Positions 1 through 40,516 of a stretch of 64,000 nt of DNA are shown piece after piece (the stretch's first letter is position 1; the number at the start of each line of letters is the position of its first letter). Both the position numbers and the translations under genes were made by a program. This stretch comes from a bacterium UBA2214. GTDB lineage: Bacteria; Zhuqueibacterota; Zhuqueibacteria; Residuimicrobiales; Residuimicrobiaceae. A model generated the notes under the pieces. That model searched no databases. It was not told the DNA's origin and was given only the letters and a program-made list of their open reading frames with translations. The stretch lies in contig DCUM01000204.1 in assembly GCA_002327255.1 (NCBI GenBank), forward strand, positions 781-64,780, read 5' to 3'.

Positions 1-382
1 GAAGGATATTCAGGAAACATTGAAAGATCTGGCGTATATCCCGATCATGTTCATTTCGGTGCTTGATAAAATTCGCGTCTTTCGCCTCCTGGATATGGCG
101 TTGTCGGTATACGAGGAATGCCGGCGGGAAGTGCCCACGGCCGAGCTCAACCAGCTGCTGCGCGCGGTCATAGAAAAAAACCATCCGCCGGCCTATGGCA
201 CCAAATGGGTCAAAATTAATTATGTGACACAAACGCGGAGCAATCCGCCCCAGTTTACGTTTTTCACCAATGAGCCGCTCGGCATAAAAGCGAATTATCG
301 TAATTATCTGGAAAATCAAATACGTGTTCAATATGGCTTTGCGGGTGTGCCGATTCGGCTGCGCTTCCGTCAAAAAAATTAA
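1..382 (+). CDS. der: GTPase Der (EngA), C-terminal KH-like domain; 5'-truncated by the window edge
   Basis: ORF 20..382 in a frame that is open from base 2. The C-terminal Der-like motifs are KWVKINYVTQTRSNPPQFTFF...YLENQIRVQYGFAGVPIRLRFRQKN. No upstream start fits, so the gene continues off-window. Confidence 0.7.
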   Translation, partial: KDIQETLKDLAYIPIMFISVLDKIRVFRLLDMALSVYEECRREVPTAELNQLLRAVIEKNHPPAYGTKWVKINYVTQTRSNPPQFTFFTNEPLGIKANYRNYLENQIRVQYGFAGVPIRLRFRQKN

Positions 383-395
383 CCGCGAAGATTCC

Positions 396-2147
396 TTGAA
401 AAAACACTTTGGCATTCTGATCTTCATCCTCTGGCTGGCGCCATCCGTACGGGCACTGGAGCAGAAATCCCTTTCGGAAAAACTCGGTGAGGATTATCTT
501 TCCGGGCAGATTTCCAGGACGCTCTATCTGGCCTATCATCTCATCGCCGCGGAAAATCCGGAAAAATTGCCGGCGGCCTACAGAAATTGTCCCATCACCC
601 ATGATATCTGCTCCACGCTCCGCGGTGGTGAAGCGCGCGCGCATCTCGATTCTGCATCAGGAGCGGAAAAAAGTCTGCTTGCCGCAGCCTTGAGCCGTCC
701 CGATGTGTCGCGACTGCCACTTCGCCTGATCAGTCCCAAGGGAAACTTTTGCCTCCATTTTACGACGGCAGGCTCTGATTCGGCCACCGAGGCGTTTGTC
801 GCGGAAGCGGCCCGCACCTTCGATTATGTCTATGATTTGCTGATCCATGAGATGGGATACCATCCACCTCCCGATGATCTCGGGGGCGGGGGAACCCCTC
901 AACTCGATGTCTATATCATGCAATTCAGTCTCTACGGTGAAACGCGATTCGAACAGAGCGTTCCGGGCAGCAATGGCCAAAGATACACCAGCTTTATCAT
1001 CATCGATAACGATTTTTTCGGTTCGGCGTTTAAAACCCAGGGTGTGGACGCGCTGCATGTGACGGCCGCGCATGAATTTTTTCACATGGTGCAGGGGGGC
1101 TACCGCTATTTTCCAAGCACCAGCATGGATTCCCGCTTCCTGTTCGAAGCCTCTTCGGTTTGGTTCGAAGAAGTCGCCTTCGATGAAGTGAACGACTATC
1201 TGCAATATGTGCAGACCTTCCTCAACTATCCCTCGAATCCTTTCCATGTCTTTTCCAACACCACCTACGGGCTGGGACTTTACATGATCATGCTGGAAAA
1301 GCGGCACCATCGTAATACCATCCGCAGAATATGGCAGGGTCTCTACGATCAGGAACCCCTGCCTGCGTGGAATGCGGCGCTGGCGCATGACGGAGAACAG
1401 ATCGGCTTGTCGCTGGCCCATTTCGCCGTCTGGAATGGTTTCACGGCCGGCCATGCGGATACGGTGAAATTCTATCCCGAGGCCGATCTCTACCCGCCTC
1501 TCACCACAAAAGAAAAAGCGGTCTTCATGTCGACGCTCGTTATCGAGGGGAACGCCTCGGAGCTGGTCACGCAATACTACTGCATCGAAGTGCCCATGGG
1601 CGGTGTTCTGCAGATCACGCCCTCTCTCAAACGGCCGGCGGACTGGATGTACAGTGTCGCGGTATATGACCCGGCAAAATCCGACAGCTATAAGATCACG
1701 GCCGGCAATGGGCGACAAATCGTCGGGCCCCTTTCACCCGGATCGGAATTGCAACTGGCCATCACCAATATCAGCTGGCCAACTTTTTCCTATGCGCGCA
1801 ACGCCCAATCTTTCACCTTCACGCTCTCTGCCGCATTCGAACAGCCTTCCGCGGAGGAGGGTATTTATGCCCTGTCACCCGCCCCCTTTGTGCCAGCGCG
1901 AGACCAGTTCATGCAGATACAGTTCATACTCGCCAGCGCGGAAGAAACGGTGACACTTTACATCCTTTCGGAAAATGGCCGGAAATTAATTGAACGGGAA
2001 TTACACGGGCTTCCCCCTGGTGCGAATTGTTACTTTTGGGATGGCAGAGACGCAAACGGGTTGATCGTACCATCCGGCATCTATTTGTGTCACCTGCGGA
2101 GCGACAACAAATCGTGGCCCTTGCGCAAATTTGCCGTGATGCAGTGA
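396..2147 (+). CDS. Secreted zinc metalloprotease (HExxH) with C-terminal T9SS-type (Por_Secre_tail/FlgD-Ig-like) sorting domain
   Basis: ORF 324..2147. The frame overlaps the der stop, so I place the start at TTG 396, which gives the signal peptide MKKHFGILIFILWLAPSVRA/LEQ. There is an HEFFHMVQ zinc-binding motif. The C-terminus TLYILSENGRKLIERELHGLPPGANCYFWDGRDANGLIVPSGIYLCHLRSDNKSWPLRKFAVMQ matches the T9SS CTD pattern. Confidence 0.6.
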   Translation: MKKHFGILIFILWLAPSVRALEQKSLSEKLGEDYLSGQISRTLYLAYHLIAAENPEKLPAAYRNCPITHDICSTLRGGEARAHLDSASGAEKSLLAAALSRPDVSRLPLRLISPKGNFCLHFTTAGSDSATEAFVAEAARTFDYVYDLLIHEMGYHPPPDDLGGGGTPQLDVYIMQFSLYGETRFEQSVPGSNGQRYTSFIIIDNDFFGSAFKTQGVDALHVTAAHEFFHMVQGGYRYFPSTSMDSRFLFEASSVWFEEVAFDEVNDYLQYVQTFLNYPSNPFHVFSNTTYGLGLYMIMLEKRHHRNTIRRIWQGLYDQEPLPAWNAALAHDGEQIGLSLAHFAVWNGFTAGHADTVKFYPEADLYPPLTTKEKAVFMSTLVIEGNASELVTQYYCIEVPMGGVLQITPSLKRPADWMYSVAVYDPAKSDSYKITAGNGRQIVGPLSPGSELQLAITNISWPTFSYARNAQSFTFTLSAAFEQPSAEEGIYALSPAPFVPARDQFMQIQFILASAEETVTLYILSENGRKLIERELHGLPPGANCYFWDGRDANGLIVPSGIYLCHLRSDNKSWPLRKFAVMQ

Positions 2148-2458: not shown

Positions 2459-2584
2459 TTTTGCAAATTGTAGACGAGTGAATGTAAGACTACCTGGCAT
2501 CTGCAGCACACGTAAATCACATAAGCTTGTTCATAAAAGCTATTGATTACCTTCCTCGGCGCCTGTAGAGGGGAGAGACGGTTT

Positions 2585-3904
2585 ATGAAGCACATTATAT
2601 CTGTTTCGGTTATCCTGGTTTTACTGATGTTAGCCTTTTCAGTCGCAGCTCAGGATGACACGAATCTCGCTTCCAAAAGGAGCAATATCGGAGTGGGTTT
2701 CAATCTGGGGCTGCAAAAGCCTTATTGCGATGTGCTCCACACCGGAGTGGGGCTGGCGGGCGAGTTCATGATGCGTTTTCTGGTTGGCGACTATCTGGAT
2801 GTCTCGGTGGGATTGGGCTATGGCACGCTGAATGATGGTTTCAGCTACAATACCTTTGTGACGGACATGATAACCGGCGACGTCAAGGCAAATATCCATC
2901 TGACCCGGCCGGGAAAAACCAATCCCTATGTTTCGATGGGCATTGGTTTCAATAACTTTTCCTATACACGCAACAAACCATGGGCGATCGGCAGCGAGGA
3001 ATTTGAAGATGAACGTTTCACGGATGGCATCTTTATTTTCGGCGCCGGCACCGACTTTATGCTCACCCCTCAGATTGCCCTCAATACCCTGATCGATTAT
3101 CGTTTCAGCATGGGCGACGCTCTGGATGGGGCGGAAGTCGGAAAACACAAAGACGGTTATCTCAATGCACGCGTCGGCATCACCTATTACCTCTCTCCAC
3201 GGGGACAAAAACCGGCTCAAACAGAAGATGAATTACTCGCCTTGCAACGCTCTGAATATGGATCGGCCATGTCTGGTGCAACCGGGTCCAACAACCGTTT
3301 CGATATGTTCGAGGCAAAACTCGATAAAATGGAAGCCGCGGACGCAAACCTCAGCATGGAACAGTATGTACGCCTGAAATCCCGCGTCGATGAACTCAAC
3401 CAACTGGTCACCATCAAGGAAGACGAACTCGACGAACTCAAGTCGACGCTCGATTTCAAAGAACAGCGTATCGCTGATCTGCAATCCGCCCTGCAAACCT
3501 CAGAGGCATCCGGCGCCGGTTCGGCACCCTTGTCACGAGATTTTTCCTATCATTATGAACAGTCCTTGCGCAAATTCTACGCCAGAGACTATCGCGGCGC
3601 AATCGCTCTGTTCAGCAGCTTGCTGCGGGAATATCCAACCCACACACTGGCCAGCAATTGTCAATACTGGCTGGGTGAATGCTATTTCGGCTCGAGAGAC
3701 TATAAATCGGCGGCAGATGCTTTCACCGCTGTCTTTAACTATGCGGAATCCACCAAACGGGATGATGCGACGTTGATGCTCGGACGCTGTTATTACAGCC
3801 TCAACGAGCGCGGCAAAGCCCGGGAATATTTCCAGGCGGTCATCGATCAACACCAGGGTAGCGAATACGTGGAGAAGGCACGGCAGTGGTTGCGAAGGTT
3901 GTAA
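2585..3904 (+). CDS. Outer-membrane beta-barrel (OmpA/porin-like N-domain) - coiled coil - TPR protein, YbgF/CpoB-like C-terminus
   Basis: ORF 2543..3904 with start at MKHIIS (2585). The signal peptide is MKHIISVSVILVLLMLAFSVAAQ. There are alternating beta-strand-like segments, a coiled-coil (ELNQLVTIKEDELDELKSTLDFKEQRIADLQ), and a C-terminal TPR block (YRGAIALFSSLLREYPTHTLASNCQYWLGECYFGSRDYKSAADAF...) resembling tol-pal YbgF. Confidence 0.6.
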   Translation: MKHIISVSVILVLLMLAFSVAAQDDTNLASKRSNIGVGFNLGLQKPYCDVLHTGVGLAGEFMMRFLVGDYLDVSVGLGYGTLNDGFSYNTFVTDMITGDVKANIHLTRPGKTNPYVSMGIGFNNFSYTRNKPWAIGSEEFEDERFTDGIFIFGAGTDFMLTPQIALNTLIDYRFSMGDALDGAEVGKHKDGYLNARVGITYYLSPRGQKPAQTEDELLALQRSEYGSAMSGATGSNNRFDMFEAKLDKMEAADANLSMEQYVRLKSRVDELNQLVTIKEDELDELKSTLDFKEQRIADLQSALQTSEASGAGSAPLSRDFSYHYEQSLRKFYARDYRGAIALFSSLLREYPTHTLASNCQYWLGECYFGSRDYKSAADAFTAVFNYAESTKRDDATLMLGRCYYSLNERGKAREYFQAVIDQHQGSEYVEKARQWLRRL

Positions 3905-3924
3905 GCGGCGTCTGCCAGGATCAT

Positions 3925-3957
3925 GGCGGCTGGATTGACTTCAGCCGCCTTTTTTTA
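3925..3957 (+). terminator. Rho-independent terminator after the YbgF-like gene
   Basis: GGCGGCTG-gattgactt-CAGCCGCC stem-loop followed by TTTTTTTAT. Confidence 0.5.
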
Positions 3958-4140
3958 TCATTTTTCTTTGCTATACTGCAGCACAAATGACTTGATATCA
4001 TCCAGGTGCGTCAGTATCATTCTGGCCTTCGCCAACCCGAATGAAAATGGATAGCGCTCACCTGGATTGAGCGTCAAGATGGGATTGCCTTTGTACTCAC
4101 CCACCTGGGGTCTATTTAACTTTTCACCATTCTCTTCCAT
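3958..4140 (-). CDS. Small hypothetical protein (60 aa) directly downstream of the adenylate cyclase gene
   Basis: Internal Met of ORF 3958..4332. AGGAGC sits 6 nt before the ATG at 4140. Product: MEENGEKLNRPQVGEYKGNPILTLNPGERYPFSFGLAKARMILTHLDDIKSFVLQYSKEK. No family recognised. Confidence 0.35.
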   Translation of the reverse strand: MEENGEKLNRPQVGEYKGNPILTLNPGERYPFSFGLAKARMILTHLDDIKSFVLQYSKEK

Positions 4141-4160
4141 AAAAGCTCCTGTTTTGCGGT

Positions 4161-6275
4161 TCACTTCTGTTTCATTTCGTAAATGCCATCCCAGTCCGAC
4201 GGGGCCGGAACCTCCAAAAAATTGAGACAGCGGATGGTATGGATGCGCGAGGGCCCATCGTTGGGAAAATAGCGTAAAACCCTGCGGAAGGAAATCAAAG
4301 CATCCGCCCAACGCCGCTCCCGATAGGCACACAAACCCTCTGTGTAGATATCGATCAAATAATCCTGCTCCAATTGGGGGAGCGAATCCATGCTGCGGAG
4401 TTCATAAATGCGAATAGGCCGGGACTTGCCCACAACCTTGACCTGGTCCAGCTCCCGGCAAAAGGATTTGTCCTTGATACAATGATAAGTACTCTCACTG
4501 ATGATCAGACTGGTCTGGTATTCCTTGTTGGCCCCCTCAAGTCGTGAGGCGAGGTTGACCTGATCGCCGATCACGGTATAGTCGAAAAGCTGCCGGGAAC
4601 CAAGATTACCGGCGATCATCTTGCCCGTGTTGATGCCTATGCCAATATTGAAATGACCGTAGGATTCTTCAGGCCAGGTTTTATGCAACTCCTTCAGCCT
4701 TTGCAGCATCTCCAGAGCCGCCTGGCAGGCACGATAGGCATGGTCTTCAAAATAATAGGGCGCGCCAAACAACGCCATGATCTCATCGCCGACAAATTTA
4801 TCCAGCGTCCCGTTGAATTTGAAAATGACGTCCACCATTTCACTGAGATACTCCGAAAGCCGGGATACCACCACCTCCGGCTCGTGACTTTCACTGAAGC
4901 GGGTGAAACCGCGAATATCCGAAAATAAAACCGTCAGCTCCTTGCGTTCGCCCCCATAACTGGGCAACTCGCCCGCATCGAGCATTTTTTCCACTACCGC
5001 AGGCGCAACATATTGCTGAAAGGTCTGGCGGATGCGAACTTTTTCTCGCTGCACAATCACAATCTGATAGGCGAGATGCGACACCGAGGCCAGCGCAAAT
5101 GTCAAAATCGGGACACTCAGAGGAAGCAGGATATTTAAAAGGTAAAATCCAGCATATACCATCGCACCATAGAATAAGCCCATCAGGATCAACAGACCCA
5201 AAGCGCGAAGGCCATGCATCCAGCGCATTACAAGGCCGGCACAAATGGCCAATATAAGGGAAATTACAAGGAAGAACCAGGAGGGGGCAGGGTGGAGGAA
5301 GTCGCCGCGCAGTAGCGTGCTCAGGGCATTGGCGTGCAGTTCCACACCTGGCATTTTTTGCTTTAAACCGGCATAATCGAAAAAGGGAGTTAATTTGTTG
5401 TCTTGCATCTCCTCAGCGGCAGCACCCACAAAAACGATTTTATCGCGAAACGTCCCCCATGCCAGGTATTGGTCGAAAATATCGGTGTCCTCATCGGCAG
5501 CCAGAGCGAAGGTTGAATCATCGAGAATGCTGACCAGAGAATAGGTGTGAAAAGTGCGCGCCGGGCCTCTAAAATTGATATACATGGTGTTGTCTTGCAC
5601 TTTGGGGATATGCGTGGTACCCAGGACAAAGGAGTCGGACCAATAATCCGGCAGAACTTCCATGGACTCCCCTCTGAGGAGCCGCGTCGCCTGAATGGCC
5701 AACGAATAATAGACGCGTTGACCGGAGGGCTGGAAAAGCAGATATCTTCTGATAAAACCATCGGCATCTTCAGGAACATTGACCAAACCCAGGACAGCGC
5801 CCGAGCGCATCAGGGGCTGAATCGGTTCGAGGACATGCTCATTGTTGGCGAGGCGGCTGCCAATATCCAGTACGATTTTGCCCGCCAGAACGACCTGCTT
5901 CATATCGCTCACAGCTGCGGCGAGCAGCAGATCTTCTTCAGGTGCGTCATGAGTCGGCTCCGTGAACTCGACGTCAAAGATAATCATCCTGGCCCCTGCA
6001 CGCTTGAGATTATGGACCAGTCTGGCATAATAGCTGCGCGGGTAGGGCAATTTGCCGGGTAAACTCCGCAAAGTTTGATCATCAATCGCAACGATGACAA
6101 TGGAAGTATCTCTCGGTGTGACCGCGCCCCGCAGGCTGAACAGGGTATTGACTGTTTTGAGTTGAAAAGTATCTATCAACACCATGGACTGCAATACAAG
6201 AGCTGTTAGAACGGAGAGGAAGGCAACCACGATGATCGCCCGATAGCGCTCCCGTGTTCTTTTCTTGTCCAGCAT
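4161..6275 (-). CDS. CHASE2 sensor domain - class III adenylate/guanylate cyclase
   Basis: 704 aa. There is an N-terminal TM, a periplasmic CHASE2-like region, then TM helices. Cyclase motifs are LTVLFSDIRGFTRFSE, KFVGDEIMALFGAP and GIGINTGKMIAGNLGS. Confidence 0.8.
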   Translation of the reverse strand: MLDKKRTRERYRAIIVVAFLSVLTALVLQSMVLIDTFQLKTVNTLFSLRGAVTPRDTSIVIVAIDDQTLRSLPGKLPYPRSYYARLVHNLKRAGARMIIFDVEFTEPTHDAPEEDLLLAAAVSDMKQVVLAGKIVLDIGSRLANNEHVLEPIQPLMRSGAVLGLVNVPEDADGFIRRYLLFQPSGQRVYYSLAIQATRLLRGESMEVLPDYWSDSFVLGTTHIPKVQDNTMYINFRGPARTFHTYSLVSILDDSTFALAADEDTDIFDQYLAWGTFRDKIVFVGAAAEEMQDNKLTPFFDYAGLKQKMPGVELHANALSTLLRGDFLHPAPSWFFLVISLILAICAGLVMRWMHGLRALGLLILMGLFYGAMVYAGFYLLNILLPLSVPILTFALASVSHLAYQIVIVQREKVRIRQTFQQYVAPAVVEKMLDAGELPSYGGERKELTVLFSDIRGFTRFSESHEPEVVVSRLSEYLSEMVDVIFKFNGTLDKFVGDEIMALFGAPYYFEDHAYRACQAALEMLQRLKELHKTWPEESYGHFNIGIGINTGKMIAGNLGSRQLFDYTVIGDQVNLASRLEGANKEYQTSLIISESTYHCIKDKSFCRELDQVKVVGKSRPIRIYELRSMDSLPQLEQDYLIDIYTEGLCAYRERRWADALISFRRVLRYFPNDGPSRIHTIRCLNFLEVPAPSDWDGIYEMKQK

Positions 6276-6303
6276 CGGCTAATATCCTCTTCCCGCTGCG
6301 AAA

Positions 6304-8850
6304 TTAAAAATAACGGTCAAAGCGCAATCTGAGAATCGTGTCCGTATCGCTCTGATCCGCTGCATCATCCAGTTCCATCCTGTAGCGCCAGAGTTGACCC
6401 TCGAGCATCACTATCTGTCCCGGGGAAACTTGCCATCTGGCGCCCAGCCGCAGCTGCATCCGGTTTTGCGACAAATCGCCCTGTGGCTGTTTTTGCTCGA
6501 TGGCGCTGTATTGCCAGTCTGCAAAAGTGGACAACCGGTTCTGTAAAAGCCGGTATTCACTGGAAAAACCCAGCGTATTGTAATCAAGATCGGGTATGCC
6601 CGCACCATTCATGACGTTGTTGCTGTAGCTCAGGGTCGTTGTAAGAGGCGTCAAAAATCGTGTTGTCAAACTCAGCAAAACGATTCGGTTGGTCAATTCG
6701 GGTGAAATATAGCCGCTGCTGCGCGCGCCTCTGTGGTCATCGATATTGCGACTCGAAATATACCCGAGACTGATCTGATGCGACAGATCGAACAAGCGGA
6801 AATTTTGACTGGCCTGAAGCGCCAGATCGCGGAACCAGATTTTTTCCCGTTCATCGCGGAGCACCGTTGTGCTGTCCAGCAATGAGCTGATTTGATAGGA
6901 ATGCACCGAAATGGTGTCGACATGGTTATCCCGCAATTGATCGCGGAGGCTGATATTGAATTGCGGGTAGTTCCCTCCGGGCAGCAGCGTCACAGCATAG
7001 TTCAGCGTGCGCAGATCGATGGCGGGATTGGAATTTTCTTCGCTGAAATTATCCGCATATTGTTCATAGCCGAGGGTTATATAAGCGCGGTTCGAGAATA
7101 AGCGCAGGCGGTCGTTGATGAAAAAACCCCGTAAATCTTTCCTGAGCCAGGGATTGGCCAGCGAAATGTATTCGGATCCTATGGAACGATAGCCCATGTT
7201 CAGGTATTGATTGAGCAGATTAAGACGCAGATTGACGGTATAGGCCAGCGACCCGCCTTGCAGCGGATTCAAGGGGATGGTGCTGTCGTTGATGATGAGG
7301 AGATCATCCAGGCTCTGGGGATCGATTGGCAGTTCGAAATCGGATCCGAAAGCGCGCTTGACATCATCCGTGGTGACCGCACCGGGATAGATGTCGTGGG
7401 TGATCGCGCTGACGGCCGCCTGGGCCGTGAAAAGAACTCGGCCGCCGATCATGGAGAGCTTAACATCCGGGCCGATGACGAGATTATCCTTTGGCATCAC
7501 GCCTGCCGCGATCGAGGAGGTGTCGTCCTTGATTTTCAACAGGGTCAATCCGAGCTGAAAATGCCGTCCATCGCCGAGGCTGGGCCGTATGCCGATCAGC
7601 GACTGGCTGAACGTACCCGGCCGATTCACGGCCAGCGAATCGGTTCCAGTGCCTCCCGTTGCCATCTTCCAGGTCGTCTTCACCGCGCGCTGGGTGTGCC
7701 CGTACACCACATCCATGTTGACCAGGCCGAGATGTAAATAACCGGATACACCGCGAACCCGTTTGCCGGCGAGGATGAGCTCATTATAACGCGGATAGAC
7801 ATCGCCGCCGCTCACGCCAATCCACGGATTTTCGAGTGAAAAACCAAAACGATTACGGGGTTGAAAATGCCGGTCTTCGAGAGATGTCACGAAAAGATGG
7901 CCCCGGTATGAAAGGCTTTTCCATCTGCCGGACACTTCTGCGCCGGCCATGGCGATACCTTTTCCCGCATTGCCATACTCCTCATACGCGAGATCGCTAT
8001 AGGCATGGGCGTACATTTTTTCCCGGGACTGCTCTTGCGGTTTATCGGCCCCGGTCACAAAAAAGCGCACCGAAAGGGGTGGAATTCTGGTCTGGCGGCT
8101 GTCAACGGCCTGAATCTCGATGATGTGCCGGCCGGGGGAGAGGTTGGTTGGCGAATAGGTGATCAAGGCACTGCTGATCTCCGCCTGGCGTGTCACATCT
8201 GCGCCATCCATCGAAATCCGCACCAGCAGGGGATCGAGATCGCCCGGCCCATTGTAGGAGACCGCCAGCAGGACCTCATTCGCTTCATAGGTCGCGTCCT
8301 GGTCAGGCGTCAGCAGCAGGAGTGAATCGGTCGCTGCGACATCACCTGCATCGGCTGCGGCCGAAGGTATGGGTACCGGTGTGGTCGCTGGGGGCGCCGA
8401 TGTTTGGGGCAAACCAGGCGCAGGCGGCACAAGGGTCGCTGTGGCCGTAGGGGGCATGATCTCCAACTCGTGGGGAGAATGATAGGGATTGCGTTCCGGA
8501 AAAGTTTTCAGCGACTGGTTGTTGAAGAGAAATACAATGAAATAGGCGATTTTGGTGCCACGAACGTGTCGAGCGGGAACAACACCTTGCCAGTTCTCTC
8601 CGATGGATTGCAATGTGACAGAACGATAGGTGGTGTCACTGCCGGCGCGATAGAAAATATTGGCTTTTTGCACGCGCAGATCGGGTCCCGTCTTCAGGGT
8701 GCAATCAAGGGTCAATGCGCTGCCCGCGCGAACCTGCCGCGGGGGAACATGCCTGAGCACAGGTTGTGCAAGCGCCGGGAGGACAAAGGCAAGCCAGATC
8801 AAGAAAAGGGGACGATAGCCTTTGATACGGTCACACTGCCGTCGCGCCAT
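6304..8850 (-). CDS. Large outer-membrane beta-barrel protein (hypothetical), N-terminal Pro-rich linker
   Basis: ORF 6304..8871. The likely start is MARRQ (8850), with signal peptide ...PLFLIWLAFVLPALAQP. There is a Pro/Thr-rich linker and a long C-terminal region with alternating hydrophobic residues ending in ...RLRFDRYF, an OMP C-terminal Phe signature. It lies 28 nt upstream of the cyclase start. Confidence 0.55.
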   Translation of the reverse strand: MARRQCDRIKGYRPLFLIWLAFVLPALAQPVLRHVPPRQVRAGSALTLDCTLKTGPDLRVQKANIFYRAGSDTTYRSVTLQSIGENWQGVVPARHVRGTKIAYFIVFLFNNQSLKTFPERNPYHSPHELEIMPPTATATLVPPAPGLPQTSAPPATTPVPIPSAAADAGDVAATDSLLLLTPDQDATYEANEVLLAVSYNGPGDLDPLLVRISMDGADVTRQAEISSALITYSPTNLSPGRHIIEIQAVDSRQTRIPPLSVRFFVTGADKPQEQSREKMYAHAYSDLAYEEYGNAGKGIAMAGAEVSGRWKSLSYRGHLFVTSLEDRHFQPRNRFGFSLENPWIGVSGGDVYPRYNELILAGKRVRGVSGYLHLGLVNMDVVYGHTQRAVKTTWKMATGGTGTDSLAVNRPGTFSQSLIGIRPSLGDGRHFQLGLTLLKIKDDTSSIAAGVMPKDNLVIGPDVKLSMIGGRVLFTAQAAVSAITHDIYPGAVTTDDVKRAFGSDFELPIDPQSLDDLLIINDSTIPLNPLQGGSLAYTVNLRLNLLNQYLNMGYRSIGSEYISLANPWLRKDLRGFFINDRLRLFSNRAYITLGYEQYADNFSEENSNPAIDLRTLNYAVTLLPGGNYPQFNISLRDQLRDNHVDTISVHSYQISSLLDSTTVLRDEREKIWFRDLALQASQNFRLFDLSHQISLGYISSRNIDDHRGARSSGYISPELTNRIVLLSLTTRFLTPLTTTLSYSNNVMNGAGIPDLDYNTLGFSSEYRLLQNRLSTFADWQYSAIEQKQPQGDLSQNRMQLRLGARWQVSPGQIVMLEGQLWRYRMELDDAADQSDTDTILRLRFDRYF

Positions 8851-8867
8851 AGAGGTTCCTCTCACGC

Positions 8868-9548
8868 TCATTTCATTTTATATTTCAATTTGAGATGCTT
8901 TTTGCTGCCCTGGTTATTTTCGAATTCAATATCCAGTTCATTGATTTCATCCTCTTGCGCCCAATCCTCGAAATCGGCGCTGTCGAACAGCTGCGGTATG
9001 CCGTTTTTACTGACCTGGCCTGTGGTGCCCTTGACGACCAATATCTTGCCGAGATCATTGAAGAATTCGATGAGGCCTTCGATGCCGATGATCGTGGTAT
9101 TACCGTCCGCGTCGGCAATGCCGTAGAACTCGGTGCCTTTCACCGCTGCGACGCCGGAGGGTGTTTCCAGGCGAAACGTGCCTTTTCCCGGTATGACCCG
9201 GCTCCACATCTCACCGACCTCCATGAGGATGCGTTTATGAACGCCCTTTTCACCTTTTTCGGCGCGAATCTGCACCTCTGAATCGGAGCGTATTTTCATC
9301 ATCGTCTTGTCGTCGAGAAATACCAGCGCCACCAGACCCGAGGTGCCCGTTTTGATGATATCCTTGTTGTGCAGACGCATCCCTTTGGTGACGGTCGCCC
9401 AATTGGCACTCTCCTTTTTAATCCTGGCATCTCCATTTACCTTGAGTACAAAAGCCACTTCCTGACTGGCCGCCCAAAGCAAGCTCGTGCTCAGCAGGAG
9501 TATGGTGCTGCACACCATGATGGTGGTGAAAAGCTGTATTCGTTTCAT
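8868..9548 (-). CDS. FecR-domain periplasmic protein
   Basis: 226 aa with signal peptide MKRIQLFTTIMVCSTILLLSTSLLWAASQE. FecR-like segment: KGMRLHNKDIIKTGTSGLVALVFLDDKTMMKIRSDSEVQI...TPSGVAAVKGTEFYG. Confidence 0.65.
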   Translation of the reverse strand: MKRIQLFTTIMVCSTILLLSTSLLWAASQEVAFVLKVNGDARIKKESANWATVTKGMRLHNKDIIKTGTSGLVALVFLDDKTMMKIRSDSEVQIRAEKGEKGVHKRILMEVGEMWSRVIPGKGTFRLETPSGVAAVKGTEFYGIADADGNTTIIGIEGLIEFFNDLGKILVVKGTTGQVSKNGIPQLFDSADFEDWAQEDEINELDIEFENNQGSKKHLKLKYKMK

Positions 9549-9575
9549 GATAGAGGTCTCCCTAAAATTCCGGCA

Positions 9576-10718
9576 TTACTCAACGCGTGATTCGATCAGT
9601 GTATATTCACCGGAAGCAATTTTGGCAAGAATGGCGCGTATTTGTTCCCGCGAAATCCAGCGGCCGTTGAGCATGAAGAGTCCACTGGGCGTGAATCCAT
9701 CCAAGGCACCACCGGCCCTGAAAAAGGTTTCCAGGTCATCGCCCAGCAGCGCGCGCAACTGCGCCAGCAAGGCTTCATCGCTCAGCGCGCCCATGGCAGC
9801 GCTCGCATCGTGGACGATGAATGACCAAATCTCACTGGGCAGTTCCAGGGGCGCCCCGGAGGAGGGCGCCATGCCGGTTATCTGCCAGTAGTAAATTTTG
9901 CCCGGTTCCAGGGGCCAGGCGCCGAAGGCAGGGTAGGGATACGCCGTGACAGAAATGTATTCACCGCCGTCGCTGGAAAAAGCGCCGGCGCGCGCGGGAT
10001 CCAGGGTGAAGGTGCGTTCGAAACGAATCCGGTCCTGAATGATCTCCGCCGGACTGGCGCTGTCATGCACCCCGGGAAGTTTTTCGGCAAGGATGAGTTT
10101 ATACTGATCCATATTGGAGGTCCAACGGAAGATGGGCTGTGTACCGGTTATAACGGCGGGCGCATCGCGCTCCGCCGGCGAGCCCGGTCCGATCAAATCC
10201 AGACTGGAGGGATTGGAGACGTCGATTTCGATAAAGGTGGAGGAGAGCTCCGCATCTCCTTCGGCGGGCTTTATGACAAACGTGAAGCGGTAGATATCCG
10301 AGGGCAGTTTGCCGAGTTTGAGGACGCGATCCCGCAATTGGCTGCCGTTATCGAGAATCTGATACTCCTGCAGGGCGAACTGTTGCGCCTGGGTGAAGAG
10401 ATTCTGATTGGTGAGGCGCATCAGGGCGCCACCCGGTAACGCGAAAGGACGGGTGATGCCGGCTGCCAATTCTCCCAACCGCATGGAACTGATCCCCACC
10501 CACAGTCGCGCCGTTTGCGGCAGCGGCGAGGTGTTTTGGATGGTGAGCGCAAATATTTCATTGGCGGAAGTGCCACGTCCGCTGAGATTCAGATCACTGA
10601 GAAAAAAGACGCGCAAATCGCGCTGAATCAACTGTGCATGCACCTGCACCTGCGCCCTGGCGGCCAGCGTGGGAAACATCCAGATCATCAGGAAGATGAT
10701 CGCTTTTCGGCCATACAT
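9576..10718 (-). CDS. Secreted hypothetical protein
   Basis: ORF 9576..10730. The likely start is M5, with signal peptide MYGRKAIIFLMIWMFPTLAARAQ. It is the first gene of the minus-strand operon. No recognisable family. Confidence 0.5.
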   Translation of the reverse strand: MYGRKAIIFLMIWMFPTLAARAQVQVHAQLIQRDLRVFFLSDLNLSGRGTSANEIFALTIQNTSPLPQTARLWVGISSMRLGELAAGITRPFALPGGALMRLTNQNLFTQAQQFALQEYQILDNGSQLRDRVLKLGKLPSDIYRFTFVIKPAEGDAELSSTFIEIDVSNPSSLDLIGPGSPAERDAPAVITGTQPIFRWTSNMDQYKLILAEKLPGVHDSASPAEIIQDRIRFERTFTLDPARAGAFSSDGGEYISVTAYPYPAFGAWPLEPGKIYYWQITGMAPSSGAPLELPSEIWSFIVHDASAAMGALSDEALLAQLRALLGDDLETFFRAGGALDGFTPSGLFMLNGRWISREQIRAILAKIASGEYTLIESRVE

Positions 10719-10988
10719 AAATACCTCCATGGGTTGAGATGTTCTAGGGAGGATCTATTACAAATTAAGTGCCATAAAGTCGGAAAAATGAATATAATAG
10801 TACCAATGAGTTAGGGCGCGGGATGGGGCGGCGCGCAGCGCAGGAGTGTTCAATCCTGATTTATTGTCTCAGCCTATTACAGTGCCACGGGACGCAAAGG
10901 CTTATTGATCTTGCATTTGCCGTTGAATATGCCTACATTAGTTAACAGTGAATCATGGTAAAATATTTAACCCATCTGAACTATTTTC

Positions 10989-11759
10989 GTGAAAATCCAG
11001 GGTCATCATATCCTCATCACTGGTGCATCCAGTGGCATCGGCGCGGCGTTGGCACGCCAGTTGGCGGCTCGAGATTGCGCACTGATTTTGCTGGCACGGC
11101 GGGAGGAACAGCTGCGAGACCTCGTACAACAGCTGCCGGGCGGCCTGCAACGCCATCGCATCATCGTCTGCGACGTCAGCCGTTCTGCTGAGGTCCAAAA
11201 AGCCTGCCGGGAGATTGAAGCACTGGCGCCCCCTGTGGATGGCCTGATCCTGAACGCGGGGGTCGGAGGCGGTTTCGATGTTCGTGCCATGGATGTGGAG
11301 GCCATGCGCTATCAGTTCGAAGTCAATTTCTGGGGGAGCGCAGGTTTTCTCGCCGAATTACTGCCGGGATTTCTGCAGCGCCACAGCGGTTTTATCGCTG
11401 TCACCTCCAGCCTCGCCGCCTGGCGCGGCATGCCGCGTTCTGCGCCCTATTCAGCTTCAAAATCAGCGCTGGACCGTCTGATCGAGAGCATCCGCATCGA
11501 TTGCTGGCGTTGCGGCGTGCACATCGCGTTGATCTCTCCCGGCTTTGTAAAAACACCCATGACCGACAGGAACCGCTTCCCGATGCCGTTGATGATATCG
11601 GCCGATAAGGCAGCCCGGAAAATCATCCGGGGATTGGACAAGAAAAAACCGCACATTCGTTTTCCCTGGTACTATGTCTGCGCGATGCAACTGGTGCGAA
11701 TACTGCCCGACGGGCTCTACAGCCGCCTGATGGCGATTCGTAAAAAGTATGAACAATAG
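10989..11759 (+). CDS. Short-chain dehydrogenase/reductase (SDR)
   Basis: ITGASSGIGAALARQL (TGxxxGxG), catalytic YSASKSAL (YxxxK). Confidence 0.8.
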   Translation: MKIQGHHILITGASSGIGAALARQLAARDCALILLARREEQLRDLVQQLPGGLQRHRIIVCDVSRSAEVQKACREIEALAPPVDGLILNAGVGGGFDVRAMDVEAMRYQFEVNFWGSAGFLAELLPGFLQRHSGFIAVTSSLAAWRGMPRSAPYSASKSALDRLIESIRIDCWRCGVHIALISPGFVKTPMTDRNRFPMPLMISADKAARKIIRGLDKKKPHIRFPWYYVCAMQLVRILPDGLYSRLMAIRKKYEQ

Positions 11760-22969: not shown

Positions 22970-23578
22970 ATGGAAAAGCTGTCACGAAAACAGGAGAAGG
23001 CACTGGCGTTGATCGCCAAACGCACCCGCGAGCAGGGGTATCCGCCGACGCTGGCGGAGTTGACCGAGGAACTCGGGGCGGCCTCGAAAAACACCGCGGT
23101 CAAGTACCTGCGCATCCTCTCGCGCAAGGGCTATATCGTCTGGGAACGCAACAAGGCGCGGGGGATTCAGCTGACCGCCGATGCCGGCGGGGGCGAGGTG
23201 GGACTGCCGCTGATCGGCGCGGTGGCGGCCGGCGCGCCGTTGCTGGCCGAACAGAATATCGAACGCTATGTGACGGTGCCTTCCTGCTTGCTCCAGGCCA
23301 GTGCGCCGCATTTTCTCCTGCGCGTCGCCGGCCAGAGCATGCTCCAGGCCGGCATCCTGCCCGACGATCTCGTGGTGGTACGGGCGCAACCGCATGCGGC
23401 CGTGGGCGAAGTGGTGGTCGCCCTGATCGACGGGGAAGCCACGGTGAAACGGCTGGCGCAGAGCGCCGACCGCCTCTTTCTCAAGGCGGAAAATCCGGAA
23501 TTTGCCGACATCCACCCGCAAGGGGAGTGGTCGATTCAGGGCAAGGTGGTGGCGCTGATCCGCGAAGCGGTGGTGTGA
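22970..23578 (+). CDS. lexA: LexA repressor
   Basis: Internal Met of ORF 22796..23578 with a GGGAGGG RBS. N-terminal wHTH: MEKLSRKQEKALALIAKRTREQGYPPTLAELTEELG. C-terminal S24 peptidase: VAGQSMLQAGIL (Ser) and GKVVALIR (Lys). Confidence 0.85.
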   Translation: MEKLSRKQEKALALIAKRTREQGYPPTLAELTEELGAASKNTAVKYLRILSRKGYIVWERNKARGIQLTADAGGGEVGLPLIGAVAAGAPLLAEQNIERYVTVPSCLLQASAPHFLLRVAGQSMLQAGILPDDLVVVRAQPHAAVGEVVVALIDGEATVKRLAQSADRLFLKAENPEFADIHPQGEWSIQGKVVALIREAVV

Positions 23579-23854
23579 CAGGCGCCTGCAGCTCGACGCG
23601 TCTCGTCGACCTGCAGAACGGCGCTGTCCGGCTGTGCCTGCGATTTCGGCATTCTTCATTAAATGCAACGCGCTCGTCGATCGGCATGACAGCGCTGTCC
23701 TTAGGTGAAACGGCTTCTCAACGCGGCGGCGAAACGGCAGGAAATGGAGTATACCGATACCAAATCTCCTTGGCGAACTGTCGCAAAAGGGGCTGCCGAT
23801 CAGAAAGAAGACCATCCCCCGGCGCAAGGCGCGAAAAAGGGTGGAAGGGGAAAG

Positions 23855-23882
23855 GAAGAGAGAAGAGAGAAGAGAGAAGAGA
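23855..23882 (+). repeat. Tandem heptamer repeat (GAAGAGA)x4 within a ~60-bp polypurine tract upstream of imuB
   Basis: gaagaga gaagaga gaagaga gaagaga with degenerate flanks ggaagggg aaag and gaatgga gaagagg. The tract spans 23842..23899. Confidence 0.9.
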
Positions 23883-23962
23883 GAATGGAGAAGAGGGAAA
23901 AGGCCCCGGGTTCTGCCGCGCCTCTTACAGCAAACAGGGTGATTTCTTTGGACGGAAACTTT

Positions 23963-25126
23963 ATGTCGCGCACGATTTTGCATATCGACGTCAACGATTT
24001 TCCCGTGGCCGTGGAACGGGTGCTGGAGCCGCGCCTGCGGCAACGCCCCGTGGCCGTGGCGGTGGAGAGCGCCAGCCGCGCCCTCGTCGCCGCGCGTTCG
24101 CGCGAAGCGGCCGCCAACGGCGTGCAGCGCGGCATGCCCCTGCACCAGGCCCTGAAATACTGCCCGGATCTGACCGTGCTGCCCCCCAACGAAGCGCTCT
24201 ATCACCGCGCCACAACCGCGCTGCTGCACCTCCTCGGTCAGTTCACGCCCGTCATCGAACCGCTGCGCTTCGGCCACGCCTACCTCGACCTCACCGGCTC
24301 CGGCCGCCTCTTCGGCAACGGCGTCGATGCCGCCGCCCGCGCCCAGCGCGAAATCCGCGACCGCCTCCGCCTCGACGCCGTCGCCGGCGTCGCCAGCAAC
24401 AAACTGGTCAGCAAGGTCGCCTCCGATGTCATCACCGTCCGGAACCCGCAAACCGCCCTCTGCGACGTCCACTACGGCGAGGAACAACGCTTCCTCGCGC
24501 CGCTGCCGGTGGGCTATCTGCCCGGCGTGCAGAAAACCATCCGCGCCCAACTGACCGAACTCAACATCCACCGCATCCGGGAACTGGCGGGGATCAAATC
24601 CGAACACCTGCAGATGGTCTTCGGCCGCTTCGGCCTGCTGCTCTTCCAGCGCGCCCGCGGCATCGACGAGCGCCCGGTGATGCCGCCCCGGCGCAGCCCG
24701 GAGATCGTCGAAACCGTCGAACTGGCCGACGACGGCAACGACTATGAAGCGTTGCGCCGCCTGACCTTCGCGCTGCTCGCCCGCGCCACCCGCCGCCTGC
24801 GCCGCGACCGCCTCTTCACCCGGCACCTGGGGGTGGAAATCCTCTATGGCGATCACCGCCGCGACACGGCGCAGACCCGCACCGCCGCAGCGCAAACCGA
24901 CGCCGATCTCCTCGCCGTCGCCGAAACAACTTTGGGAAAGGCCCTGGCGCGGCGCGTGCGCGTACGCAAAATCACCCTGCGCCTCGGCGGCCTCGGCCCG
25001 GCCAGCGGCCAGCTCGGACTCTTTGCCGCCACCGAAAATCCCAAATATGCCGCGCTCACCGGCGCCATGGACAAAATCCGCGACCGCTTCGGCGATGCCG
25101 CCATCCGCTTCGGGTATGCCGCCTGA
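23963..25126 (+). CDS. imuB: ImuB, catalytically inactive Y-family DNA polymerase paralogue of the SOS mutagenesis cassette
   Basis: Starts MSRTILHIDVNDFPVAVE, aligning with DinB MRKIIHVDMDCFFAAVE but with the second Asp replaced by Asn. The SLDEAYLD catalytic DE position reads RFGHAYLD. Catalytic carboxylates are therefore lost, as is typical of ImuB. It sits between lexA and dnaE2. Confidence 0.75.
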   Translation: MSRTILHIDVNDFPVAVERVLEPRLRQRPVAVAVESASRALVAARSREAAANGVQRGMPLHQALKYCPDLTVLPPNEALYHRATTALLHLLGQFTPVIEPLRFGHAYLDLTGSGRLFGNGVDAAARAQREIRDRLRLDAVAGVASNKLVSKVASDVITVRNPQTALCDVHYGEEQRFLAPLPVGYLPGVQKTIRAQLTELNIHRIRELAGIKSEHLQMVFGRFGLLLFQRARGIDERPVMPPRRSPEIVETVELADDGNDYEALRRLTFALLARATRRLRRDRLFTRHLGVEILYGDHRRDTAQTRTAAAQTDADLLAVAETTLGKALARRVRVRKITLRLGGLGPASGQLGLFAATENPKYAALTGAMDKIRDRFGDAAIRFGYAA

Positions 25127-25246
25127 AACGGCGACAGGAGGGCGGCAATCCGGTGCGCCGGACAGCCCCGCAATGCAACGGAACGCCTGCAGAAAAAAGT
25201 TGATCTTTACCAAAATTATGCTAAATTGCTCCCTGGAGGCGCGACC

Positions 25247-26122
25247 ATGATCATCTCCGCCAGCCGCCGCACCGACATCCCGCGCTATTACGCCAAGTGG
25301 TTCATCCGCCGCGTGCGCGCCGGCCACTGCACCGTGCCCAATCCCTTCAATCCCGGACAGGTGCGCCGCGTCGACCTGCGCCCCGAAGCTGTCACCGCCC
25401 TGGTGTTCTGGACGCGGTTTCCAAAGCTGTTAATGCCCTATATACCGGAACTTGAACACAGGAAATTAAAGTTTTACTTTCAATATACCATCACGCGTTA
25501 TCCCGATCGGTATGAACCCGGCGCACCGCCCGCGGAGGAGGCGATCGCCTGCTTTCGTTCCCTGGCCCGGCTGTTGGGCCCGGGACGCATGATCTGGCGC
25601 TACGACCCGATTTTTTTCACGGATGAATGTGATCCGGACGATCATCTGCAGAACTTTGCACGCCTGTGCGCGCAGTTGCAGGGCTGCACCCGCAAGGTGG
25701 TGATCAGTTTTCTCGATGAATACCGCCGCACGCGGAGCCGGATGCGCGCGGCGGGCGTGGCTTATCCGGGCGATCCCCTGCAACATCCGGGTCTGAAGCC
25801 CCTGCTGCAGGCCATGGTGGAGATCGCCGCGCATCATCACCTGGGCATCGAATCGTGCGCCGAACCCGAATGGCTGCAATCGTATGGCATTGCCACAGGC
25901 CGCTGCATCGATGAGCGATTGCTGCAATCCGAATTCGGGGTAAGAGTGGCCTATAAAAAGGATCCGGGACAGCGTCCCCTGTGCGGCTGCATGCCGAGCA
26001 GGGACATTGGCAGCAACAATACCTGTCCGGCCGGCTGCCTGTACTGCTATGCCACCCCAAATCCTGCTCAGGCGCAAGAACGCTTTTGCCGCCATGACGT
26101 GAAGGCGGAATCTCTCATTTAA
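25247..26122 (+). CDS. DUF1848-family protein (putative Fe-S protein) embedded in SOS cassette
   Basis: GGAGG 8 nt before the ATG. N-terminal MIISASRRTDIPRYYAKWF resembles the DUF1848 signature ISASRRTDIPAFY. C-terminal CPAGCLYC is a CxxxCxxC motif. Confidence 0.55.
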   Translation: MIISASRRTDIPRYYAKWFIRRVRAGHCTVPNPFNPGQVRRVDLRPEAVTALVFWTRFPKLLMPYIPELEHRKLKFYFQYTITRYPDRYEPGAPPAEEAIACFRSLARLLGPGRMIWRYDPIFFTDECDPDDHLQNFARLCAQLQGCTRKVVISFLDEYRRTRSRMRAAGVAYPGDPLQHPGLKPLLQAMVEIAAHHHLGIESCAEPEWLQSYGIATGRCIDERLLQSEFGVRVAYKKDPGQRPLCGCMPSRDIGSNNTCPAGCLYCYATPNPAQAQERFCRHDVKAESLI

Positions 26123-26151
26123 TCCATTGGCCTCGAAAGGGAGTAACCACT

Positions 26152-27321
26152 ATGTCGAACGTGAAGATTATTCAATTTTCCAACAAAACCGCCCAGGATC
26201 GCCGTCTCTTGAAAGTATTCGTCGATTTTCACTGGAAACACTATGAGCACGATCCGCAGTACATCCCCCTGCTCGATTATGAGTATCTCGGATTCAAACT
26301 CCTCGGCATGACCGGTTTTTTTGAACCCGGCAATCTGTTCTTCAAGCATGGGGAAATGGTTTTTTTTCTGGCCCAGTGCGGCGATCACATCGTCGGCTGC
26401 TGCAACGCCTTTGTCAATCATAATCACAACAAACACTGGAATGACAAGGTCGGCTTCTTCGGCCAGTTCGAAACCATCGATGACCAGGAGGTCGCTGAAG
26501 CGCTGTTGAACGCCGCAGCCACCTGGCTGAGAAGCAAAGGCATGACCGCCATGCGCGGCCCGCAGAATCTGCCGGTCAACGAAGCCACCCCGGGGTGTCT
26601 GGTGGAGGGGTTCGACACCCGCCCCGTGGTCTATTATCATTACAACAAGCCCTATTATGAAAAGATTTTGCAAGCTTATCAGATGCAGGTGGTCAAACGC
26701 GTCAAATCCTGGGAAGTGCCCGTGGACCGGCCCATGGAGGAGAAGCTGGGGCGCGTCGGCAAAAAGGTGATGGAGCACTATGGCGTGCGCGTCGAAAACT
26801 GGGGAGAGCGGCCGTTGCCGGTGCGCAAGGAGGAGATGCTGCAGGTCTACAATGAGGCCTGGAATGACAACTGGGGCTATGTGCCCTTCACCCGGGAAGA
26901 GTTTTGCAAAAACATCGACGATATGCAACTGATCATGGAAAAAGGTCTCTTTATCTTTGTCTATGTCAAGGATGAATTGGCCGCTTTTTTTGGCGGCGTG
27001 CCGAATATTTTTGAACGCATGCAGCCGCTCTCCTGGTGCCGCCGTTGTGAATTTGTCCGCGCGGCGCGCATGCTGCTGTCCAGACACAAGATAAGAGGGT
27101 TCCGGCTCGGCTACATGGGCGTCCGGCCCAAATTCCGCCGGCTCGGCCTCGACGGCGTCATGTTGTGGCAGCAAAAGATCTTTGCGCAGCAGAAGGGTTA
27201 CGACTATAGCGATCTCGGCTGGGTGCTGGAAGATAATGTGCTGATCATACGCGTCGTCGAAATGATGCAGGACGTCAGGCTCTCCAAAGTCTATGCCATT
27301 TTTCAAAAAGAGCTTGTCTGA
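26152..27321 (+). CDS. Hypothetical protein, probable GNAT/FemAB-like acyltransferase fold, embedded in SOS cassette
   Basis: 389 aa with GGGAG RBS. It has two halves with an acyl-CoA N-acyltransferase-like pattern. No specific family is recognised with certainty. Confidence 0.45.
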   Translation: MSNVKIIQFSNKTAQDRRLLKVFVDFHWKHYEHDPQYIPLLDYEYLGFKLLGMTGFFEPGNLFFKHGEMVFFLAQCGDHIVGCCNAFVNHNHNKHWNDKVGFFGQFETIDDQEVAEALLNAAATWLRSKGMTAMRGPQNLPVNEATPGCLVEGFDTRPVVYYHYNKPYYEKILQAYQMQVVKRVKSWEVPVDRPMEEKLGRVGKKVMEHYGVRVENWGERPLPVRKEEMLQVYNEAWNDNWGYVPFTREEFCKNIDDMQLIMEKGLFIFVYVKDELAAFFGGVPNIFERMQPLSWCRRCEFVRAARMLLSRHKIRGFRLGYMGVRPKFRRLGLDGVMLWQQKIFAQQKGYDYSDLGWVLEDNVLIIRVVEMMQDVRLSKVYAIFQKELV

Positions 27322-40485: not shown

Positions 40486-40516
40486 GGACAGACAACACCC
40501 AGCAGGGAGTCATTCT

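Follow-up and report, generated by a model that had tools for sequence, protein, structure and literature searches.

A conserved gene cluster for a very large outer-membrane barrel protein, a FecR-domain protein and a CHASE2 cyclase in bacterium UBA2214: a candidate envelope-to-cAMP module

Known CHASE2 systems and the gene cluster of UBA2214

CHASE2 domains were defined in 2003. What they recognise was not known as of 2016 (PMC5192318), and the only mechanistic lead on CHASE2 sensing in the open-access literature is NsrA of S. meliloti. NsrA is needed to perceive plant signals and ribosomal-protein uL2 signals via CyaK and CyaD1/D2, upon which cyclic AMP (cAMP) rises and Clr is activated (PMC7529298, PMC13001267). 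Residues 600-1200 of NsrA are described as a beta-barrel (PMC7529298), and CyaD1 without its CHASE2 domain makes cAMP constitutively, making CHASE2 an inhibitory module (PMC5498481). CHASE2 receptors paired with FecR-domain proteins are also known from the BiofilmReg operon of Burkholderia, which encodes a LysM-FecR protein and a CHASE2 histidine kinase (PMC5192318), and from a CHASE2 cyclase cluster of Campylobacterota (PMC9239204). Here, we describe a cluster of five open reading frames (ORFs), A-B-C-D-E, which lie in a row on the minus strand at 3958-10730 of a 64,000-nt stretch (the window) of contig DCUM01000204.1 of the uncultured bacterium UBA2214 (KSB1/Zhuqueibacterota). The cluster encodes a secreted protein (A), a FecR-domain protein (B), a very large outer-membrane barrel protein (C), a CHASE2 receptor cyclase (D) and a small protein (E). 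We propose, with a probability of roughly 0.55, that A-B-C-D(-E) is a trans-envelope sensory module, encoded by one transcription unit that is sigma-54-driven in KSB1, and that the module converts a signal from the envelope or the surface into cAMP.

The features of the cluster are listed in Table 1. The intergenic gaps amount to 27 nt (A/B), 17 nt (B/C), 28 nt (C/D) and 20 nt (D/E), and Shine-Dalgarno-like motifs were found 5-11 nt before the starts; because such a motif precedes one start codon each, the starts were set as given in the table. Those of A and C match the database proteins P0033 and P0001, both of which are 100% identical to the window proteins. Upstream, the cluster is bounded by a 258-nt spacer and a divergent SDR gene (10989+). 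Downstream, the hairpin behind E carries a T-run and an A-run and is, therefore, probably a bidirectional terminator ending the operon; it was the strongest terminator-like site in a scan of 3700-11100, and no strong internal terminator was seen between the operon genes in the same scan. No riboswitch or other known RNA matched Rfam at E<=0.1 in 3700-11200, including the leader of A. The short gaps, the Shine-Dalgarno-like motifs and the gene order, which is conserved as described below, are operon-like and support the single transcription unit predicted by the first-pass annotation of this DNA. That annotation had also described five closely packed minus-strand genes, which were recovered with gaps of 17-28 instead of 18-28 nt, and a barrel protein of 855 aa with a Pro-rich linker, which is indeed very large and contains the linker but has 848 aa. 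Its tightly spaced 60-aa ORF is substantiated by protein-level conservation in 13 loci, and its assignments of A as a secreted hypothetical protein, of B as a FecR-domain periplasmic protein and of D as a CHASE2-sensor class III nucleotide cyclase are sustained by the signal peptides, Pfam matches and catalytic residues described below.

Table 1 Features of the A-B-C-D-E cluster; positions are those of the window
Feature	Position	Strand	Description	Length	Start	Shine-Dalgarno-like motif
Sigma-54-type element TGGCACTTAATTTGTA	10759-10774	-	-24/-12 element, TGGCAC-N5-TTGTA, ~41 nt upstream of A start codon			
Gene A	9576-10718	-	secreted protein	380 aa	10718	GGAGG
Gene B	8868-9548	-	secreted protein, DUF7354 + FecR	226 aa	9548	GGGAG
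Gene C	6304-8850	-	outer-membrane protein, Ig-like domains + barrel	848 aa	8850	GAGAGG
Gene D	4161-6275	-	inner-membrane CHASE2 receptor cyclase + TPR	704 aa	6275	GAGG
Gene E	3958-4140	-	cytoplasmic protein	60 aa	4140	AGGAG, 5 nt upstream
Hairpin	3925-3949	.	G+C-rich, between convergent E and 2543-3904(+); T-run on +, A-run opposite	10 bp		

Conserved linkage, protein architecture and promoter element

Among 28 species-level genomes, mostly labelled KSB1/Zhuqueibacterota (the taxon labels of all compared loci are those submitted by the depositors), C was adjacent to D in 28/28, B to C in 21/21, and A was located upstream in 21/21 loci with room for it. Order and strand of A-B-C-D were kept in this set down to ~30% identity and the intergenic gaps were short in nearly all KSB1-clade loci; of the flanking genes, SDR/ZnuABC were common to 7 loci and the convergent gene for an outer-membrane TPR protein to 13. 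The linkage was also found in 34 metagenome loci whose C is ~25% identical to that of the window, from metagenome-assembled genomes (MAGs) labelled Ignavibacteriaceae, Ignavibacterium or 'Chlorobiaceae': B was next to C in 33/33, D followed C in 30/30 and an A-like ORF of 343-375 aa was present upstream in 29/30. In 10 further clades, which were sampled singly, B-C were adjacent in 9/10 and C-D in 6/10, and the whole A-B-C-D order was observed in five (L030, L033/L034, L035, L036 and L073). A different solution was seen in L074/L075, in which C stands without A and B beside a cyclase with two CHASE2 domains; the duplicated CHASE2 may replace the FecR partner in this clade. This double-CHASE2 cyclase (L074/L075:9732-13388) has 1218 aa. 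Taken over KSB1, Ignavibacteria and other FCB-group MAGs, C and D were adjacent in 64/68 loci with room while the flanking genes changed; C is, therefore, not a generic porin. It was found next to the double-CHASE2 cyclase without A and B (L074) and with A and B but no D (L031, L032 and L072) and is, therefore, the hub of the module. The first-pass annotation had considered the case that the barrel is a porin unrelated to the FecR/CHASE2 pair in other genomes; instead, the linkage recurs across phyla.

D carries the enzymatic activity that is predicted for the cluster. Hydropathy and a basic N-terminus place a first transmembrane helix (TM1) at residues 14-32, followed by a periplasmic CHASE2 domain (~33-331), three transmembrane helices (332-408) and a cytoplasmic part with a class IIIb cyclase domain (445-620) and a weak TPR (644-673). 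CHASE2 is thus located between TM1 and the three-helix bundle on the periplasmic side, as expected for a CHASE2 receptor. The Pfam matches are well above their cut-offs for CHASE2 (residues 22-348; 1.1e-54, 186.1 bits, cut-off 26.3) and for Guanylate_cyc (2e-26, 93.2 bits, cut-off 21.9), and the best sequence match in the PDB is the catalytic domain of P. aeruginosa CyaB (3r5g, 1.4e-40). Six catalytic residues, D453, K493, D497, T567, N574 and R578, are invariant in 26 orthologues of D. Following the residue pattern of class III cyclases, we take D453 and D497 to be the metal-binding aspartates, N574 and R578 to be the transition-state residues and K493 (LDKFVGD) and T567 (DYTVIG) to be the substrate pair; all of them are present in D. 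Guanylate cyclases have Glu plus Cys/Gly where adenylate cyclases have Lys plus Asp/Thr and, indeed, Cya2 (2w01), a guanylate cyclase, carries Glu in place of this Lys when aligned with D. Since the Lys/Thr pair is the signature of adenylate cyclases of class IIIb, the product of D is predicted to be cAMP and not cyclic GMP (cGMP). Of the two outputs that had been offered for the cluster, cAMP or cGMP, the invariant K493 and T567 point to the former.

B is secreted and soluble, and its cleavable signal peptide stands at the very N-terminus. It matches Pfam FecR (PF04773) with 2.8e-11 and 44.1 bits (cut-off 24) as well as DUF7354 with 1.8e-9, and neither a transmembrane nor an anti-sigma domain was found in its 226 residues. 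Its N-terminal region gave a weak match to the LapA retention module (23 bits, cut-off 50). The C-terminus consists of a motif of ~22 residues, ELDIEFxNxxGxxKHLKLKY (8868-8940(-)), which is preceded by a variable acidic linker containing a conserved Trp and which was kept in 25/25 aligned family members, distant ones included. Across the B homologues, the motif reads ELxIEFxNxxGxxKxLKIKY. Its alternating pattern is that of two amphipathic strands and it looks like a beta-hairpin-like docking element.

C was modelled by AlphaFold2 (AF2) with a pLDDT of 80.5 and a pTM of 0.58. In the model the signal peptide is followed by a first Ig-like domain (31-132), the disordered Pro-rich linker (136-173), which had been noted before and is placed here between the Ig-like domains, a second Ig-like domain (176-266) and a barrel (280-848) that ends with ...RYF at the C-terminus. 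DSSP counts ~28 strands in the barrel. The "even" connections between them are periplasmic-type turns of 2-7 residues, whereas the "odd" ones are loop-like and, in the first half of the barrel, 11-50 residues long; the long loops at 323-333, 352-364, 443-454 and 558-572 have a conservation of 0.60-0.69 compared to 0.51 for the strands. The best structural match in Foldseek was MtrB (6r2q_B, E=2.9e-10, target-normalised TM-score 0.52); the pilus ushers FimD and PapC came next, ahead of TonB-dependent transporter barrels, which were generic barrel matches with TM-scores < 0.4. The sole Pfam match, to MtrB_PioB, covers the C-terminal 84 residues and remains with 16.5 bits under the gathering score of 23. 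A plug or a TonB box, whose presence in the barrel had been put up for checking, was found neither by domain nor by structure search, and Plug, TonB_dep_Rec and STN did not match even at E<=10. Because of the ~28 strands, the resemblance to MtrB and the conserved loops, C is not a small diffusion porin.

A word-indexed search for C gave 32 hits, all from KSB1-type MAGs, but an exhaustive profile search returned 842 representatives at 50% identity with E<=1e-30 and 2,887 with E<=1e-10. A word-indexed search with a distant-member profile gave 6 hits. A and C belong to large families that have no Pfam model. As a side observation, giant proteins of 3,000-4,000 aa (P0140, P0160 and P0197) contain 18-20 copies of Ig-like domain 1 of C (profile positions 29-141), which therefore represents an unannotated repeat unit of large surface proteins.

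A bears a signal peptide, lacks Cys and matched no Pfam or NCBIfam family; its homologues were always found directly upstream of B. In the AF2 model (pLDDT 78), two Ig/FN3-like beta-sandwich domains in tandem are followed by a small helical domain at the C-terminus. Foldseek gave generic tandem beta-sandwich matches only (transglutaminase beta-barrel domains, RbmA, fibronectin), by which a PapD-like chaperone or a specific adhesin was ruled out. E has neither a signal peptide nor a transmembrane helix and gave no match in Pfam, NCBIfam or the PDB. By tblastn it is conserved over its full length with 52-80% identity in the 13 loci, which belong to one KSB1 subclade and in which it is always encoded 15-45 nt after D, and 19 positions are invariant in 9 sequences. 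A PC4/YdbC-like ssDNA-binding fold was rejected for E, with an hhalign probability of 0.6% and no PDB or Pfam match.

The region upstream of A contains a sigma-54-type -24/-12 element, which was not part of the first-pass annotation and is new here. It is the sole match to TGGCAYN5TTGYH in the 64-kb window, where 0.76 are expected by chance, so that it is not significant alone. The element recurs 30-100 nt upstream of A in 17/20 KSB1-clade loci, with near-matches in two more (19/20), although the spacer DNA around it is poorly conserved. The background is low: 2.06 Mb of fetched DNA contained 27 matches to TGGCAYN5TTGYH, and 17 of the 27 are these sites upstream of A. The loci with the element (TGGCAY-N5-TTGYW) are the window, L001, L003, L005-L010, L012, L014, L016-L018, L020, L021 and L024-L026; it was absent from the Ignavibacteria-clade loci. 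GG at -24, GC/GT at -12, the spacing (TGGCAC-N5-TTGCW) and the conserved position upstream of the first gene are those of a sigma-54-dependent promoter. Because the element is conserved at this place in KSB1, the operon is probably RpoN-dependent there.

Comparison with described systems and rival explanations

NsrA (1200 aa, encoded on pSymB; L029) comprises a FecR domain (66-160), TPR (378-587) and a C-terminal region without a Pfam match, and nsrA abuts cyaK, the gene of a CHASE2 cyclase. The cluster of UBA2214 is similar in that the gene of a CHASE2 class III adenylate cyclase is immediately preceded, in the same orientation, by the coding sequence for a FecR domain and a barrel of ~570-600 residues. 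In phmmer, the FecR regions of B and NsrA match with 1e-16. Unlike NsrA, which is one polypeptide, FecR and barrel are separate proteins in the window; C bears Ig-like domains where NsrA has TPR, and the TPR of the window is found at the cytoplasmic end of D. The cluster further differs from nsrA-cyaK by the extra conserved protein A and by its host, which belongs to the FCB group and not to the Alphaproteobacteria. By analogy, the NsrA fusion offers a Rosetta-stone-type argument that B and C may work as one unit. The relay from barrel and FecR protein via CHASE2 to cAMP, which had been suggested for the cluster from the outset, therefore has an experimental precedent in NsrA-CyaK and, with NsrA as an earlier example, is an idea of a known kind; the direction in which the signal flows and the surface ligand are parts of it that we infer.

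The secreted FecR-domain protein encoded beside a CHASE2 receptor is shared with the systems of Burkholderia and Campylobacterota. It had been stated in the first-pass annotation that FecR-domain proteins recur beside CHASE2 receptors, and this is documented for Burkholderiales (PMC5192318) and Campylobacterota (PMC9239204). In contrast to the window, the system of Burkholderia lacks a barrel and has a histidine kinase and a response regulator as its output, and a phosphodiesterase and a TPR protein are additionally encoded in the cluster of Campylobacterota; the families of A and C are missing from both.

The comparison with FecA-FecR-FecI, which had been drawn as well, is appropriate for the logic but not for the parts. 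In both cases an outer-membrane barrel and a periplasmic domain with FecR fold (PF04773) would pass information to an inner-membrane component. However, plug, TonB box and STN domain are all missing from C, which has ~28 strands instead of the 22 of the FecA barrel and starts with two Ig-like domains; on the lack of plug, STN and TonB-box domains, a role of C as FecA-like TonB-dependent transducer was ruled out. B lacks the cytoplasmic anti-sigma domain and the transmembrane anchor of the FecR anti-sigma factor, no sigma factor gene, including ECF (extracytoplasmic function) types, was found among the neighbouring genes, and no TonB/ExbBD genes are present in the cluster. Finally, the output predicted for the window is cAMP and not a sigma factor.

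We consider an envelope-to-cAMP module of functionally linked genes to be right in outline, with a resemblance to Fec in logic only and with a concept that has already been studied in NsrA. Gene content, domain identities, membrane topology, the intact active site, the gene linkage across phyla and the conserved promoter element are direct observations; the scheme that we infer from them concerns the physical contacts, the signal and its direction, and what A and E do. In this scheme, C would be the outer-membrane end of the relay, exposing its conserved long loops and holding two periplasmic Ig-like domains on the Pro-rich tether. B would serve as periplasmic adaptor between C, to which it may dock with the hairpin at its own C-terminus, and the CHASE2 domain of D, and A would belong to this complex as well, either as accessory or as ligand-binding subunit. 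An event at the outer membrane, be it the binding of a ligand or a perturbation of the envelope, would be passed by B to CHASE2. The dimeric class IIIb cyclase domain would thereby be released from inhibition, and cAMP would be made by D for effectors that are encoded elsewhere.

Several findings weigh against this scheme. It presupposes contacts among A, B, C and D, and the arrangement of the domains in the AF2 model is uncertain (pTM 0.58). Neither a cAMP receptor nor a phosphodiesterase was detected by Pfam on the genes to ~40 kb (except 40415-41914), and phmmer with E. coli CRP, a search of low sensitivity, revealed no CRP homologue among all window ORFs. No protein with the GAFTGA motif of an enhancer-binding activator is encoded in the 64-kb window, so that the activator of the sigma-54-type promoter would have to be encoded elsewhere. 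The barrels of C and NsrA gave an hhalign probability of 0.75%, and phmmer and hmmsearch --max did not go below E>0.09, with one NsrA sequence and hence limited sensitivity; because no sequence homology is detectable between the barrels, the NsrA precedent holds as an architectural analogy. Furthermore, in 4/68 loci no cyclase gene adjoins C, which is accompanied by B and, in two or three cases, by an A-like gene. In L031, C is followed by the gene of a giant FG-GAP/LamG protein of 11,589 aa (L031:12166-20880, running past the locus), L037 adjoins a 1782-aa Peptidase_C25 cargo of the type IX secretion system (T9SS) with a sorting domain (L037:3938-9286), and in L032 and L072 B is long (525-532 aa). 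Since two of the loci without D are located beside giant surface or T9SS proteins, an A-B-C complex may have a function of its own. The surface proteins encoded after the barrel in L031 and L037 hint that an A/B/C unit may also serve surface proteins.

The main rival starts from this possibility: A-B-C would be an outer-membrane machine in its own right, similar to MtrCAB or an usher and used for surface display, secretion, anchoring or macromolecule uptake, and D would merely monitor the machine or the integrity of the envelope and adjust cAMP. The signal would then originate within the envelope instead of being an external ligand. MtrB forms a 26-strand sheath around MtrA and is encoded in the operon order mtrC-mtrA-mtrB; A-B-C parallels this order, and C, as MtrB/PioB, is a very large barrel encoded after two genes for extracytoplasmic partners. 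The structural resemblance to MtrB, which is ahead of the ushers FimD and PapC in the structure search, is real, but C has ~28 strands and two N-terminal Ig-like domains and its MtrB_PioB score is sub-threshold. An electron conduit of the MtrB type was ruled out, since none of A, B and C contains a CXXCH haem-binding motif. A machine would be consistent with the loci in which A/B/C without D stand beside a giant FG-GAP/LamG protein or a T9SS cargo, with the long B and C without D in L032 and L072, with the weak LapA-like region of B and with the giant proteins built of Ig-like domain 1. It is at odds with the 64/68 loci in which D follows C, by which the cyclase is the rule, and with the genetics of NsrA, which demonstrate that an outer-membrane protein of this type can be dedicated to the reception of signals. 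In addition, no cargo gene was found that is conserved beside the cluster, and A was not matched to chaperone or adhesin-tip folds by Foldseek. On balance, we regard the machine as possible though not probable.

Less probable still is a function of C as substrate-specific channel, in which A and/or B bind a solute or oligomer in the periplasm and present it to CHASE2, without any conformational change being transmitted across the outer membrane. The large barrel, which lacks a TonB-type plug, and two soluble periplasmic proteins with binding-type folds would suit this explanation, and the ligands of CHASE2 are unknown (PMC5192318). It is, however, made unlikely by the long loops of C, whose conservation exceeds that of the strands and which probably would block or gate the barrel, by the two Ig-like domains tethered to it in the periplasm, for which a simple channel has no use, and by the FecR domain of NsrA, which is covalently tied to the barrel and argues for a physical relay. 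That the genes are neighbours by inherited synteny only and C is a generic porin is effectively excluded: A and C have no annotated function, but KSB1, Ignavibacteria and other clades share the gene order and orientation at ~25% identity with differing flanks, the gaps are short throughout and a single conserved promoter element precedes A.

Returning to the sensory module, a more far-reaching version of it can be formulated, which we consider doubtful. A, B and C would form an MtrCAB-like trans-outer-membrane signalling complex of a class not recognised so far, in which C sheathes B, docked by its C-terminal hairpin, and couples it to A at the surface. If this were true, a surface event would be passed mechanically through a threaded protein to CHASE2; CHASE2 domains would in general be sensors operated by partner proteins and not receptors of small molecules, which would answer what CHASE2 senses, and TonB-independent signalling from the cell surface would be widespread in bacteria of the FCB group.

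The combination of barrel, FecR partner and CHASE2 cyclase is not a rhizobial oddity, since a split, non-homologous form of it is conserved in KSB1, Ignavibacteria and related uncultured FCB-group lineages. With A and C, two large families are newly defined, and the barrel family comprises hundreds to thousands of 50%-identity clusters in metagenomes. Handles on CHASE2 sensing are offered by the separation of FecR from the barrel, by the hairpin at the C-terminus of B and by the loops that are conserved in C, and the module is tied to sigma-54 control in KSB1. It was also found in MAGs labelled Ignavibacterium and Ignavibacteriaceae, lineages which have cultured members.

Neighbouring genes and side observations

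Genes for an SDR, ZnuABC and a YbgF-like outer-membrane protein are located next to the cluster. Long ORFs antisense to real genes should not be annotated here: 5547-6062(+) and 4653-4928(+) seem to be conserved elsewhere, but this is a by-product of the conserved coding strand of D, and the minus-strand triad 22982-27306(-) was recognised by its odd composition and its overlap with plus-strand ORFs as shadow ORFs of plus-strand genes.

Some compared loci encode, after the cyclase and on the same strand, a response regulator with REC and PglZ domains (L022:7372-9309, L027:11417-13063, L033:8090-9661, L034:7960-9531 and L035:8521-10095), which is the architecture of the T9SS regulator PorX; the window contains no REC-PglZ gene. 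In S. meliloti, a DUF5706 protein is encoded on the opposite strand just upstream of nsrA (L029:3696-4241) and matches PycTM, the transmembrane domain of Pycsar effectors, with 3e-11. The location of a cyclic-nucleotide-activated effector fold beside the nsrA-cyaK operon may or may not be coincidental.

The convergent neighbour at 2543-3904(+), which is kept beside the cluster in 13 loci, encodes an unusual fusion of an OMP_b-brl domain of the 8-strand type, a coiled coil and YbgF/CpoB-like TPR, the latter matching TIGR02795 with 87 bits, just under the cut-off. In the same window, 324-2147(+) encodes a putative metalloprotease of the MXAN_6640 family with an HExxH motif and a C-terminal FlgD_ig-like domain, a type of C-terminal domain that is also present on T9SS-type cargo proteins in related loci.

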